A DNA stretch of 64,000 nucleotides, taken from contig OZ241323.1 of the NCBI GenBank assembly GCA_965199685.1, positions 2,529,940-2,593,939 of the forward strand, given 5' to 3'. The notes under the pieces are model-generated. The model had not been told where the DNA came from, did no database searches, and saw nothing but the letters and a program-made list of their open reading frames with translations. The position numbers and the translations under genes are program-made. Of the stretch, positions 5,834 to 11,964 are shown one piece after another. The stretch's first letter is position 1. Every line of letters begins with the position of its first letter. The stretch is from an uncultured candidatus Porisulfidus sp. GTDB lineage: Bacteria > Pseudomonadota > Gammaproteobacteria > Poriferisulfidales > Oxydemutatoraceae.

Positions 5834-8563
5834 TCACGATTGGGGATCTGGTCTTTCTGTCGTTGTAGGTAGCTCTTTTAAGATAGAAAGGTCATAGGTT
5901 GTATTGAGATGATAAATCATCGGTCCTTTATATGGCGGTAAAATCTTAACTGTGGCATACTTCATGATGTTGTCTTCAACCAAATAAAGCATTGCATTAT
6001 CTATTTTTTTTCCGCCTTTACCCGAAACAAGTTTTCTTAAATTAGGAAAGTTATAGTAGCGGTATACTTTATAGTCGGATTTTAGAAAATCAAAAAAGTC
6101 GCGCTGATGTATATCGGACATAACATAAAGCCGAGAGCCTTTACTAATTGAATGTTCCAACACTGATTTAATTTGCTCCTTTGATACCGCAAACGGAAAT
6201 ATGCGTCGCTTGTTATCTCTACCTTCAGTCAATGCGGGCAAATGCATACACGCATAATAAACTTTATTTAGAGGAATGCTGTCATGTTGCTGATCCCATC
6301 CACTGCTGTTTACCCTATCTAAAAAATAACGTTGTGCCGTCATTGCATCCTCACGAGATATGCCTAAGGCATTCAGCATCTCATCAACTATTCTAATTAC
6401 TTTCTCCGAGTCCTGTTTTTCTCTCGTTGAAGGTGGCTCCTTAAAGAGCGAAAGGTCATAGACTGTATTGAGATGGTAACTCATCGGTCCCTTATGTGGC
6501 GGTAAAATCTTCACCGTAGCATACTTCATGATGTTTTTTTCAACTAAATAAAGCATCACATTATCTATTTGGCTGCCGTCCTCACCCGAAACAAGTTTTC
6601 TTAAATTAGGAAAGTCATAATAGCGATATACCTGATAATCTGATCTTAGAAAATCAGAAAACTCAGTCCTATGTATATCGGACATGATATAGAGCCGAGA
6701 ACCTTTGCTAATTGAATGTTTCAGCACTGATTGAATTTGCTTTTTTGATGCCGAAAACGGAAATATGGGTTGCCCGTAATCTCTATCTCTGATCGATGCA
6801 CGCACATGCATACACGCATAATAAACCTTATCCAAAGAAATGTCTTCGTGTTGCAAACCACTTATCTCGTGGTTTGTTCTATTTAGAAAATAATGTTGCG
6901 ATGCCATTGCAACTTTACGAGACACGCCTAAGACATTCAGTGTCTCGTCAACTGTTCTATTTACTTTCTCCGAATACGGAAAGTCTATATAGTAGTCATG
7001 TTGATACTTTTCGCAAGTGCTAACATAATCAAATGCCGGGTCTCTGCGAACCAACACATCATAGCGTTGATTCAGCTCCTCGCTGACGATTTCATCTGCA
7101 GCAAGGCTATATACTTTGTCGGGCGCATAACTAGCCAAATCGAATTCTTCCTCTTTAATCCAACCTTGATTGAGTGTACTAGATTTATGGCCTCCTTGTT
7201 CAAACTGAACAAGGATACTGTTTGATAAATCAAGGTAATCCTCAAAACGCAAGTTGATTCTACTATCACCCAAATTATGCGTTGAACTAATAGTAAATGT
7301 TCCGATGACAGGAATTCTATTTAGGTATTGAGCTTCCCTAAAGATAAGGTTCAACATTCCAAACACGTTATCAACACCGGTTTTACGCCCAGACATGGAA
7401 AATAAGAGATATTTGTTCGGCAGTAAATTTTTATTCAATGAAGATATTACTATCAACTTAGGATTTAATTTTTTCCGTTTAGTAACCCAAAATTTTTTAA
7501 TTTGCCTCCAAAACAGTCTCGTGGGTAACCGTTTTTTCACTGGTTTTTTATAGATTGATCTCGTGGATGGTGGTTTCTTTAAAAAAGTTAGATCGTAAAG
7601 CGTATTAAGGTTATAAATCATTGGGGCTTTGTGGGGTGCTAAAATCTTAACCGTGGCATACTTCATAATGTTTTTTTCAACCAGGTAAAGCATCACATTG
7701 TCTATTTTTTTACCGCCCTCACCCGAAACAAGTCCTCTTAATTTGGGAAAGTCATAATAGCGATATACCCGATAGTCTGATTTTAGAAAATCAAAAAAGT
7801 CAGGCTGATGTATATCGGACATGATATAGAGCCTTGACCTTTTTCTAATGGCGTGTTTAACTACCGACTCTATTTGCTCCTTAGCTGCCACAAATGGGAA
7901 TATGGGTTGCTCGTAATCTCTATCTTCAAAAGCTGCACGCACATGCAGACACGCATAATAAACTTTACGCAGAGGAATACTGTCATATTGCTGATCCCAC
8001 CCGCTACTGTTTACCCTATTTAGAAAATAATGTTGTGCCGCCATCGCATCATGGCGAGATATACCAAAAGCATCTAATACCTTGTCGGTAAGACTGTTTA
8101 CTTTCTCTGAATACAGAAAGTCTATCAAGTATCTATCGTATTTATATTTTTTACAAGCGATAGCATACTTAAATGTCGGGTCTCTACGGATCAACACATC
8201 GTAGTGTTGATTCATTTCTTCGGTGACGATCTCATCGGCGGCAAGGTTATATACTTTGTCGGGTGCATAACTAGCTAAATCCAGTTCTTGTTCTTTCATC
8301 CAATCTAGATGAGACGCAGTGGGTTTATGACATCCTTGATCAAGTTGAACAGTGACGCTGTCTGACAAATCAAGGTAATCTTCAAAGCGCAAATCGGTTC
8401 TGTTATCACCCATGTTATGCGTTTGGCTAATATTAAATTCTCCGATAACAGGAATTCTATTTAGATGTTGAGCCTCCTTGAAAATACGGTTCAACATACC
8501 AAACACATTATCAACACCTGTCTTACGCCTAGTCATCGAAAACAAAAGATATTTTTTTGTCAT
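5834..8563 (-). CDS. Fusion of 2.5 tandem fucosyltransferase-superfamily-like GT modules (module D1 aa 1-333, basic linker, D2 aa 384-715, D3 C-terminal half aa 716-909)
   Basis: Each module carries: KYLLFSMxRxxTGVDNxFGMLNRIFxEAQxLNRIPVIG (compare POFUT1 GYLLY...RFGNQ...LAFAKLLNRTLAVP); FEDYLDL; HVRASIxDRD (the H-[LV]-R Arg motif of GT23/GT65 enzymes); and LYIMSDIH (the hhhh[ST]D motif). D3 lacks the N-terminal ~150 aa, and its HVR motif is degenerate (HLPALT). Confidence 0.45.
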   Translation of the reverse strand: MTKKYLLFSMTRRKTGVDNVFGMLNRIFKEAQHLNRIPVIGEFNISQTHNMGDNRTDLRFEDYLDLSDSVTVQLDQGCHKPTASHLDWMKEQELDLASYAPDKVYNLAADEIVTEEMNQHYDVLIRRDPTFKYAIACKKYKYDRYLIDFLYSEKVNSLTDKVLDAFGISRHDAMAAQHYFLNRVNSSGWDQQYDSIPLRKVYYACLHVRAAFEDRDYEQPIFPFVAAKEQIESVVKHAIRKRSRLYIMSDIHQPDFFDFLKSDYRVYRYYDFPKLRGLVSGEGGKKIDNVMLYLVEKNIMKYATVKILAPHKAPMIYNLNTLYDLTFLKKPPSTRSIYKKPVKKRLPTRLFWRQIKKFWVTKRKKLNPKLIVISSLNKNLLPNKYLLFSMSGRKTGVDNVFGMLNLIFREAQYLNRIPVIGTFTISSTHNLGDSRINLRFEDYLDLSNSILVQFEQGGHKSSTLNQGWIKEEEFDLASYAPDKVYSLAADEIVSEELNQRYDVLVRRDPAFDYVSTCEKYQHDYYIDFPYSEKVNRTVDETLNVLGVSRKVAMASQHYFLNRTNHEISGLQHEDISLDKVYYACMHVRASIRDRDYGQPIFPFSASKKQIQSVLKHSISKGSRLYIMSDIHRTEFSDFLRSDYQVYRYYDFPNLRKLVSGEDGSQIDNVMLYLVEKNIMKYATVKILPPHKGPMSYHLNTVYDLSLFKEPPSTREKQDSEKVIRIVDEMLNALGISREDAMTAQRYFLDRVNSSGWDQQHDSIPLNKVYYACMHLPALTEGRDNKRRIFPFAVSKEQIKSVLEHSISKGSRLYVMSDIHQRDFFDFLKSDYKVYRYYNFPNLRKLVSGKGGKKIDNAMLYLVEDNIMKYATVKILPPYKGPMIYHLNTTYDLSILKELPTTTERPDPQS

Positions 8564-8579
8564 ATTCTTAAGTATACTT

Positions 8580-10889: not shown

Positions 10890-11964
10890 GGCTCAACAAC
10901 TGCCTAATGAAATTATAAGCCGTCCGCTTCAATGCTCCCACCTGTAGAACCGGAGGTTTTTTCAAGATGTTAAGATTGTAAACCGTATTGAGATGATAAC
11001 TCATCGGTCCTTTATGCGGTGCTAAAACCTTAACCGTGGCATGCTTCATAATGTTTTTTTCAACCAAATAGAGCATCACATTATCTATTTTGTCACTACT
11101 CTCACCTGAAACAAGTTGTCTTAATTTGGGAAAATCATGATAGCGATATACCCGATAGTCAGACTTTAGAAAATCAAAAAAGTCGGCCTGATGTATATCG
11201 GACATGATATAGAGCCGAGAGCCTTTAGCAATTGAATGTTCAAGTACCGATTTGATTTGCTCCTTCACTGCCGCAAACGGAAATATAGGCTGCCCAAAAT
11301 CTCTGTCTTTAATAGATGCACGCACATGCACACATGCATAATAAACTTTATTCAAAGGAATGCAGTCGTGCCGCACATCCCACCCGCTACTGTTTACCTT
11401 GTTTAGAAAATAATGTTGTGCCGCCATTGCAACTTTACGAGACATGCCTAAAGAATCCAGTATCTCGTCAACGAGTCTATTTATTCTCTCCGAATATGGA
11501 AAATCTATAAAGTAGTCGTCATATTTATATTCTTTACAAGTACTAACATACTTAAATGTCGGGTCTCTGCGAATCAGCACATCGTAGCGTTGATTCATTT
11601 CCTCGTTAACGATTTCATCGTCAGCGAGGTTATATATTTGATCGAATGCGTAATTAGCTAAATCAAGTTTTTGTTCTTTAATCCAATCTATACCAAAAGC
11701 GATGGGCCTATGACCCTCTTTTCCTAATCGATGGGTCACACCATTTGACAAATCAAGGTAATCTTCAAAGCACCAGTTGAACCGATTATCACCTAAGTTA
11801 TGTGTGGGGCTCATAGCAAATTTCCCAATAGCGGCAATTCTATTTAGATGTTGCGCCTCCAGAAGAACACGGTTTAACATTGTAAATGCGTTATCCACAC
11901 CCGTTTCACTTCTAGACATGGAAAACAAAAGATATTTCTTGCTCTTTGGTTGGAGATTGGCCAT
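10873..11964 (-). CDS. Fucosyltransferase-superfamily-like glycosyltransferase paralog (module A, first gene of the operon)
   Basis: Motifs present: KYLLFSMSRSETGVDNAFTMLNRVLLEAQHLNRIAAIG, HVRASIKDRD and LYIMSDIH. Its promoter region (11965..12130) is shared divergently with the 950-aa phosphatase gene. Confidence 0.45.
   Translation of the reverse strand: MANLQPKSKKYLLFSMSRSETGVDNAFTMLNRVLLEAQHLNRIAAIGKFAMSPTHNLGDNRFNWCFEDYLDLSNGVTHRLGKEGHRPIAFGIDWIKEQKLDLANYAFDQIYNLADDEIVNEEMNQRYDVLIRRDPTFKYVSTCKEYKYDDYFIDFPYSERINRLVDEILDSLGMSRKVAMAAQHYFLNKVNSSGWDVRHDCIPLNKVYYACVHVRASIKDRDFGQPIFPFAAVKEQIKSVLEHSIAKGSRLYIMSDIHQADFFDFLKSDYRVYRYHDFPKLRQLVSGESSDKIDNVMLYLVEKNIMKHATVKVLAPHKGPMSYHLNTVYNLNILKKPPVLQVGALKRTAYNFIRQLLSRVLNR

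Follow-up and report, generated by a model that had tools for sequence, protein, structure and literature searches.

A strain-variable tandem array of divergent, probably fucosyltransferase-like glycosyltransferase modules in Candidatus Porisulfidus

In a stretch of 64,000 nucleotides (nt) from the genome of an uncultured Candidatus Porisulfidus sp. (contig OZ241323.1, hereafter the window), four consecutive open reading frames (ORFs) on the minus strand, designated genes A to D (5834-11964), encode 5.5 copies of a module of about 335 amino acids (aa), gene D being a fusion of two complete modules (D1 and D2) and a part-module (D3). We propose that these modules probably form a strongly divergent and so far unannotated branch of the fucosyltransferase GT-B superfamily, present as soluble, cytoplasmic, tandem paralogous glycosyltransferases (GTs). 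The fold and the class of chemistry are known already, whereas the sequence family, which is absent from Pfam and NCBIfam, is new. Also new are its restriction to sponge symbionts and its expansion there, a 2.5-module protein whose extra donor domain is degenerate, and the variation of the array between strains. No description of this family was found in the literature.

Structural and sequence links to fucosyltransferases

An AlphaFold2 model of the gene A product, built on an alignment of 47 homologs, reached a predicted local distance difference test score (pLDDT) of 80.3 and a predicted template modelling score (pTM) of 0.78. When this model was compared with the PDB by Foldseek, the top 46 matches were all POFUT1, POFUT2, NodZ or FUT8, with E-values down to 1.7e-6, and the model contains the two Rossmann-like domains of the fucosyltransferase-type GT-B variant. 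A fold of this kind had been proposed from sequence motifs, and the original prediction had named a better match to some other fold, such as a sulfotransferase, as the result that would overturn it. No structural match to a sulfotransferase or any other competing fold was found and, because the predicted fold and the sequence bridge described below both lead to fucosyltransferases, the proposal stands. The model of full-length gene D was poor (pLDDT 63, pTM 0.46), and as its alignment was deep over D1 only, the arrangement of the modules in it is unreliable.

The sequence bridge runs through distant relatives of the array family. None of the products of genes A, B, C and D matched the hidden Markov model (HMM) of the Pfam family PF10250 (O-FucT), even at E <= 1, nor did they attain its gathering threshold of 31.5 bits. 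Weak matches to HECW1_helix, Arm_4, CBM96 and TIGR04323 (17 bits) were all below their cutoffs and were disregarded, and the profile of the array family (A1) retrieved nothing significant from the PDB, its three matches being at chance level (E 0.13-0.9). An exhaustive HMM search over 1.8 billion representatives recovered 294 relatives of the family. The consensus of the distant relatives reads ...YxAxHxRRGD...YxMSDE...YxDFPxL...DNYLL, and the ten of them for which clusters were looked up were all metagenomic singletons without names. Seven of 48 distant relatives matched PF10250, with a best E-value of 5e-8; the sole bit score shown, that of P0099 (23.6 bits), lies below the gathering score.

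Searched against the PDB, the profile of the distant relatives (A2) retrieved CePOFUT2 first (E 0.0035), followed by POFUT1 and FUT8, the last not significant (E 0.4-0.5). The alignment pairs HvRRgD with HWRRRD (motif I), LYlmsD with IYLATD (motif II) and YkvyrYyDF with LEVYRFTD (motif III). In the superfamily the arginine of motif I contacts the phosphates of GDP. A direct comparison of the A1 and A2 profiles with hhalign gave a probability of 100 and an E-value of 1.8e-51, placing HVRas..DR of the array opposite HvRRgDrl of the distant relatives and revealing a helical insertion at residues ~173-208 that is specific to the array family. By this route the predicted parallels of the HVR and LYIMSD elements align with HWRRRD and IYLATD, and motif III of the array family, YRVYRYHDF, with LEVYRFTD. 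A further parallel that had been drawn, to the N-terminus of POFUT1, is compatible with the alignments and not significant alone.

Conserved motifs and protein properties

Residues Y252, S255, Y270, Y273, D277, F278, D294, E302 and K303 are invariant in the 47-sequence alignment. Every full module of the array retains the HVR, LYIMSD, YRYxDF and IDNVMLYLVEKN elements; motif I stands as H213-V-R215 in A, B, C, D1 and D2, and its arginine is absent in D3. The ratio of nonsynonymous to synonymous divergence (dN/dS) between orthologs is 0.16-0.27 for A, B, D1 and D2. We regard A, B, C, D1 and D2 as probably active because they combine retained motifs with purifying selection.

D3 starts at position 156-158 of the HMM profile, where the C-terminal Rossmann-like domain begins in the model (helix 159-171), and it is therefore a whole donor-binding domain rather than an arbitrary half. 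Its HVR motif has degenerated in three ways in the three lineages that carry it: to HLP in the window, to HVC in locus L001 and to DVH in locus L022 (related loci are identified by L numbers where they have to be told apart). The dN/dS of D3 (0.37-0.39) is higher than that of the full modules, yet still below 1, and the domain is probably constrained and non-catalytic.

No hydrophobic N-terminus, signal-like segment or transmembrane segment was detected in the array proteins, in agreement with the earlier description; the highest mean Kyte-Doolittle hydropathy over 19 residues was 1.10. The C-terminal tails and the linker between D1 and D2 are basic, with net charges of +6 to +18.

A clade of single-copy paralogs about 47% identical to gene A (L004-L006, and L019 at 10001-11062, next to dnaA) has lost the HVR arginine, reading HVTSKRG, QVESNRG and similar, and has kept the other motifs; its members may be catalytically divergent.

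Organization of the array

All four ORFs were present at the coordinates predicted for them (Table 1). The intergenic gaps of 15-16 nt that had been described were found between B and C (15 nt) and between C and D (16 nt); between A and B the gap is 16 nt only if gene B starts at ATG 10856. The longest ORF of gene B (9690-10889) begins at GTG 10889 and overlaps gene A by 17 nt, and ATG 10856, which is preceded by AGGAAAG, is most likely the true start. The product of gene B is 100% identical to database entry P0024 and that of gene C to entry P0035.

Table 1. Features of the array and of its immediate surroundings in the window
Feature	Coordinates	Strand	Description
gene A	10873..11964	-	363 aa; single fucosyltransferase-like GT-B module and basic C-terminal helix; HVR at aa 213-215, LYIMSD at 251-256
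gene B	9690..10856	-	388 aa from ATG 10856; single module and 63-aa basic tail (+9)
gene C	8580..9674	-	364 aa; single mosaic module: N-domain D1-like, middle B-like, C-terminal end A-like
gene D	5834..8563	-	909 aa; in-frame fusion D1-linker-D2-D3; three HMM domains in one ORF
D1	7424..8563	-	complete module, aa 1-~335, and very basic linker (aa ~329-383, net +18)
D2	6419..7423	-	complete module, aa 381-715; no own start codon, no basic tail; HVR intact
D3	5834..6418	-	aa 716-909; whole C-terminal (putative nucleotide-sugar-binding) Rossmann-like domain; HLP replaces HVR
duplicated junction, copy 1	9680..9704	-	end of B, stop codon, spacer: ATTCTTATCGCATAAAAGTATACTT
duplicated junction, copy 2	8570..8594	-	end of C, stop codon, spacer: ATTCTTATCGGATAAAAGTATACTT
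candidate sigma-70-like promoter	12060..12087	-	TTGATA-16-CATAAT; consensus match only, which in itself does not show function
TPR/Cds6_C protein and YkuD L,D-transpeptidase/Cds6_C protein	3736..5799	-	295 aa and 388 aa; start 34 nt downstream of D
IpgD/SopB-like inositol-phosphate phosphatase	12131..14983	+	950 aa; Pfam PF05925 8e-60; CKSGKDRTG active-site (CX5R) motif

Gene D proved to be the 2.5-module in-frame fusion that had been predicted, with a basic linker and a degenerate half-module. The linker between D1 and D2 is homologous to the C-terminal tails of genes B and C, and the D2/D3 join reads ...PPSTRE|KQDSEKVIRIVDE (PPSTRE|KQDSEKV), D3 having HLPALT where the other modules have HVRAS. 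The expected duplication of the junction upstream of both C and D was likewise found: the sequence ATTCTTATCG(C/G)ATAAAAGTATACTT occurs at 9704-9680 and at 8594-8570, that is, at the ends of both B and C, within a 141-nt repeat that spans the junctions (9675-9815 against 8565-8705) with 73% identity.

The GC content of the array is 38.6% (36-42% at third codon positions, GC3), compared with 44.6% in the rest of the window (GC3 of 43-51% in glnA, gyrB and ldt). Further low-GC patches lie at ~38-40 kb and 62-64 kb. Involvement of CRISPR or mobile elements in the array was looked for, and none was found.

Divergence and recombination of the copies

The copies had been described as near-identical, with high nucleotide identity, and this description has to be corrected. 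Pairwise identities between modules are 55.7-69.1% in protein and 67.3-79.8% in DNA, with a synonymous divergence (dS) of 0.44-1.64, and no two copies share an identical run of more than 41 nt. The 45-mer on which the description had leaned does recur, at 6527, 7664, 8775, 9951 and 11047 with 0-3 mismatches (no occurrence in 100 shuffles), and a sixth copy with five mismatches lies in D3. Because it encodes KIDNVMLYLVEKNIM, the peptide that the family conserves best, its recurrence is no proof of overall near-identity. A repeat finder independently detected the C-terminal 300 nt six times and N-terminal parts five times, at spacings of 564, 1137, 1111, ~1180 and ~1093 nt, and a sliding-window analysis located the lowest identity between copies at residues ~76-106 and ~176-206 of gene A.

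In neighbour-joining trees of the N- and C-domains, modules from different genomes group by position (A with A, B with B, D1 with D1, D2 with D2), and the duplications must therefore predate the divergence of these genomes. A recent duplication giving a near-identical array is ruled out by this orthology by position together with the dS of 0.4-1.6.

The inter-copy recombination that had been suspected is supported by gene C, a mosaic whose nearest group is D1 in the N-domain (297-300 of 300 bootstraps), B in the middle (263 of 300) and A at the C-terminal end (274 of 300). Because the D1/B mosaic is accompanied by a duplicated B-type 3' tail and spacer, we infer that gene C was the duplication product of an unequal crossing-over between B and D1, which would have left a D1(N)::B(C) chimera between B and D; a later conversion of its 3' end to the A type would complete the pattern. 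In relatives, gene conversion between the adjacent genes A and B can be seen directly, as fresh tracts. In L003 (7704-9993) the two genes reach 100% identity in seven successive, overlapping windows of 90 nt (~270 nt) and are 60-70% identical elsewhere, and in L002 (10001-12272) the C-terminal end of gene A is nearest to that of gene B of the same locus, at a p-distance of 0.063.

D3 is sister to the C-terminal half of D2 in the tree, with a D2-D3 dS of 0.44, and derives from it. At the join a tail of the form ...RE(K/R)QDSE meets the ...SEKV of the domain boundary, and the corresponding proteins of L002 and L003 end in PPTTRERQ(D/V)(F/P)ES, a comparison which suggests that D3 arose by an intragenic tandem duplication of the C-domain. 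An origin of the D1-D2 linker by simple stop-codon read-through was rejected, because reading straight through a B- or C-type junction would give a different length.

Distribution and copy number in related genomes

The family is rare: 73 proteins among 5.8 billion were found at E <= 1e-3, almost none of them named, apart from a few labelled 'hypothetical protein' from metagenome-assembled genomes (MAGs) of Chromatiales and Gammaproteobacteria. Matches to genomes were to MAGs titled Ca. Porisulfidus sp. and Ca. Oxydemutatoraceae, which are sponge-symbiont lineages (PMC12988363, PMC11685487). The DNA flanking the array in the window shares 92% identity with L001, which is a MAG of Porisulfidus, 86% with L002 and 78% with L016, with the conserved order glnA, IpgD-like gene, array, TPR/Cds6_C, YkuD L,D-transpeptidase, peptidase M14, NDH-2 and rplM.

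Module counts, obtained by HMM scans of the fetched loci, show that copy number at this syntenic locus varies among strains and species, from 3 to 6.5 modules. L016 has three modules (genes of 375, 375 and 353 aa), L015 has 3.5 (348, 347 and 548 aa), L002 and L003 have four each (360, 394 and 732 aa; 370, 386 and 746 aa), L001 has 4.5 (377, 397 and 900 aa), the window 5.5 (363, 388, 364 and 909 aa), and L022-L024, which come from three separate metagenome studies, have 6.5 (363, 377, 345, 347 and 904 aa). Gene C is missing in L001-L003, L015 and L016 and present in L022-L024. The D1-D2 fusion is common to the window, L001, L002, L003 and L022. In L015 the linker (4740-4960) contains two in-frame stops, which separate a 347-aa from a 548-aa gene, the second restarting within the linker at MRKLDPKPLVIASLNKNLLPNKY; covalent linkage of D1 and D2 is therefore not essential. 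L014 contains fragmentary copies of the module.

Additional copies are found outside this locus. By the same scans of fetched loci, the 2.22-Mb sequence OZ244052.1 carries 12 modules at five loci, the 2.49-Mb CBDAVG010000002.1 carries 12.5 and OZ244779.1 at least 10. About 0.5% of a reduced genome is devoted to the family. Further arrays, of 3-4 genes each, are set between housekeeping genes (dcd/COQ7, zapA/rne, dnaA/folB and petABC/NIF3), and a double-module protein of 752 aa occurs in a more distant lineage (L020).

Genomic neighbourhood

The TPR/Cds6_C and YkuD genes follow the array at every related locus. No terminator-like site was found on the minus strand between them and gene D, and they may be co-transcribed with the array. 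Upstream, the array and the divergent IpgD-like gene are separated by 166 nt containing the candidate promoter, whose region is conserved in L001 and L002 and in which the count of such sites is not above that of shuffles. In L002 (~9800-10000, upstream of gene A) this otherwise conserved divergent intergenic region carries an insertion of ~197 nt.

The IpgD-like protein is an enzyme of a eukaryote-targeting type, here in a sponge symbiont. Its match covers the C-terminal third (aa 633-925), and the N-terminal region of ~630 aa has no match; against NCBIfam PRK15378 it gave 1.2e-69, which is below cutoff. The gene adjoins the array in the window, L001, L002 and L016, and upstream of the array in L003 there is no ORF of comparable size (~950 aa). 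A second IpgD-like paralog of 861 aa is encoded in L019, where the end of a giant cadherin-like protein of 5938 aa (20176-21062) lies ~9 kb from a paralog of the array family and <1 kb from this second IpgD-like gene.

Two further sets of glycosyltransferase genes occur in the window. A cluster resembling those for lipooligosaccharide (LOS) or lipopolysaccharide core synthesis (26845-33161, plus strand; GT2, GT25, GT2, GT2 and an MsbA-like ABC exporter) lies ~15 kb from the array, and a solitary GT25 gene (17835-18818, minus strand) sits in a low-GC stretch (~0.40) where L016 has a 106-aa gene without a Pfam match. Neither the LOS-type cluster nor the lone GT25 gene is linked to the array in relatives. 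The 64-kb window contains no genes for GDP-fucose synthesis.

Elsewhere the window contains a stand-alone Cas6 gene (23418-24230, plus strand; Pfam PF09559, 2.5e-55), near which Tandem Repeats Finder detected no repeat array, and no other cas family was found when the window ORFs of >=150 aa were searched against Pfam. A DDE transposase gene (43617-44699, plus strand) and a 59-nt tandem repeat of 2.1 copies (47790-47914, just downstream of gyrB) were also noted.

Discussion

If the modules are glycosyltransferases, each complete one would transfer sugar from a nucleotide donor, probably a GDP-sugar. The N-terminal Rossmann-like domain (YLLFSM...G-x-D...LNRIP) would form the acceptor side, and the C-terminal one would bind the nucleotide-sugar donor, for which a GDP-sugar such as GDP-fucose is the likeliest candidate, through the HVR arginine (R215 of gene A), the loop at LYIMSD and the elements YRYxDFP and IDNVMLYLVEKN. 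The variable segments at ~76-106 and ~176-206 plausibly give the copies differing acceptor specificities, and the basic tails and the D1-D2 linker could anchor the enzymes at the inner membrane surface or to a polyanionic acceptor. What they make would be glycoconjugates of the cell envelope, and the array may be transcribed together with the two envelope genes that lie downstream of it.

Several observations weigh against this assignment, in whole or in part. Searched directly, the products of genes A-D have no meaningful match in Pfam, NCBIfam or the PDB sequences, and the global TM-scores of the Foldseek matches are only 0.36-0.47. In the canonical HxRRGD motif the second arginine and the glycine are replaced in the array (HVRAS..DRD), and no equivalent of E54, the catalytic base of POFUT2, was recognised in the array modules; in a naive mapping from the A2-profile alignment, the residue before the conserved glycine is T or A and not Glu. 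As to the donor, some enzymes of the PF10250 type, such as plant GT106, use UDP-rhamnose and not GDP-fucose. No genes for glycan assembly, export or flipping, or sugar-nucleotide synthesis flank the array or the four annotated paralogous loci.

That repeat mis-assembly expanded one or two real copies into an array is scarcely credible: the repetitive structure itself is the only thing found in its favour, while the DNA of the copies is 20-33% divergent, well beyond the level at which an assembly could collapse or expand them. At least six independent assemblies, among them complete chromosomes of 2.2-2.5 Mb, moreover show the array in the same order at the syntenic locus, gene C is carried in three separate metagenome studies and orthologs cluster by position. 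It is also improbable, though less so, that the majority of the copies are pseudo-enzymes without catalytic activity, or duplicates in decay, with a nucleotide- or sugar-binding or scaffolding role. The loss of the HVR arginine from D3 in all three lineages and from the single-copy paralogs of the 47% clade, the degenerate HxRRGD motif, the fragmentary copies in L014 and the in-frame stops in the linker of L015 would fit such decay. All full array modules, however, keep H213, R215 (D3 excepted), S255/D256, D277 and D294/E302/K303, no module ORF is interrupted in any of six independent assemblies, and dN/dS stays at 0.16-0.27 among genomes that share 78-92% DNA identity in the flanks of the locus.

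The most serious competitor to cytoplasmic glycosyltransferases acting on the envelope is that the modules are secreted effectors which glycosylate, for example fucosylate, proteins of the sponge host, from an island shared with the IpgD/SopB-like phosphatase. We consider this unlikely, even though the phosphatase gene divergently adjoins the array at four loci, another paralog has a second such gene and the giant cadherin-like protein less than 10 kb away, the family occurs in sponge-symbiont-like genomes alone, where it is strongly expanded, the arrays stand outside any glycan gene cluster, and the GC content of the array is below that of its flanks. Against it, neither a secretion signal nor a secretion system was detected in the 64-kb window, no ORF as large as the phosphatase gene (~950 aa) lies upstream of the L003 array, and other arrays are flanked purely by housekeeping genes; adjacency alone is weak evidence. 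A divergent, probably cytoplasmic branch of fucosyltransferase-like enzymes remains our preferred reading. As to its purpose, we suggest, tentatively and with more doubt than confidence, that the sponge-symbiotic Oxydemutatoraceae hold a private, recombination-driven repertoire of fucosyltransferase-like enzymes for interaction with the host, either through strain-variable fucosylated surface structures recognised by the sponge or through direct glycosylation of host proteins alongside the IpgD-like effector. The protein with two catalytic modules and an extra pseudo-donor-binding domain would be a conserved part of this repertoire.

How sponges tell their symbionts from food bacteria is an open question, for which glycans are a leading candidate. 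This family, unannotated, near-exclusive to sponge-symbiont-like metagenomic genomes and variable in copy number among strains, offers a concrete candidate for glycan or protein modification on the symbiont side. It would be a new sequence family within the fucosyltransferase GT-B superfamily, and it shows clearly, in a natural case, how glycosyltransferases evolve by unequal crossing-over, gene fusion, duplication of domains and gene conversion. Should it turn out to be merely another set of envelope glycosyltransferases, its interest would be mainly one of annotation.

Among characterised enzymes, POFUT2 (GT68) and POFUT1 (GT65) share with the array, by way of the distant-relative profile, the H-x-R, hhhh(S/T)D and (V/Y)YR(F/Y)xD motifs. 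Identity to them is 10-15%, and the array differs in lacking the second arginine of HxRR and a recognised E54-like base, and in having the extra helical insertion at ~173-208, a basic C-terminal tail and no signal peptide. POFUTs reside in the lumen of the endoplasmic reticulum; since the array proteins have no signal peptide, folded EGF or TSR domains are implausible acceptors for them. The PF10250 family resembles the distant relatives, through HxRRGD and MSDE motifs and the matches to seven of 48, and differs from the array proteins, which it does not score.

NodZ (GT23) is a soluble bacterial cytoplasmic enzyme, as the array proteins probably are too, and of similar size (a 291-aa chain). 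There is no significant direct sequence similarity of the array to NodZ, FUT8 (GT23) or plant FUT1 (GT37), and the array has neither a Nod-factor nor an N-glycan context. NodZ is encoded by a single gene within a nod cluster, whereas a genome has 10 to 12.5 modules of the array family, placed in arrays among housekeeping genes. For gene D the closest architectural parallel is offered by KpsC and WbdA, bacterial glycosyltransferases with two tandem paralogous GT modules per polypeptide, in that it too carries two complete paralogous modules, both probably catalytic, in one chain. It differs from them in belonging to another GT family, in the extra, degenerate donor-binding domain D3, in the absence of a capsule or O-antigen export context, and in that its fusion is dispensable, the modules being encoded separately in L015 and L016.

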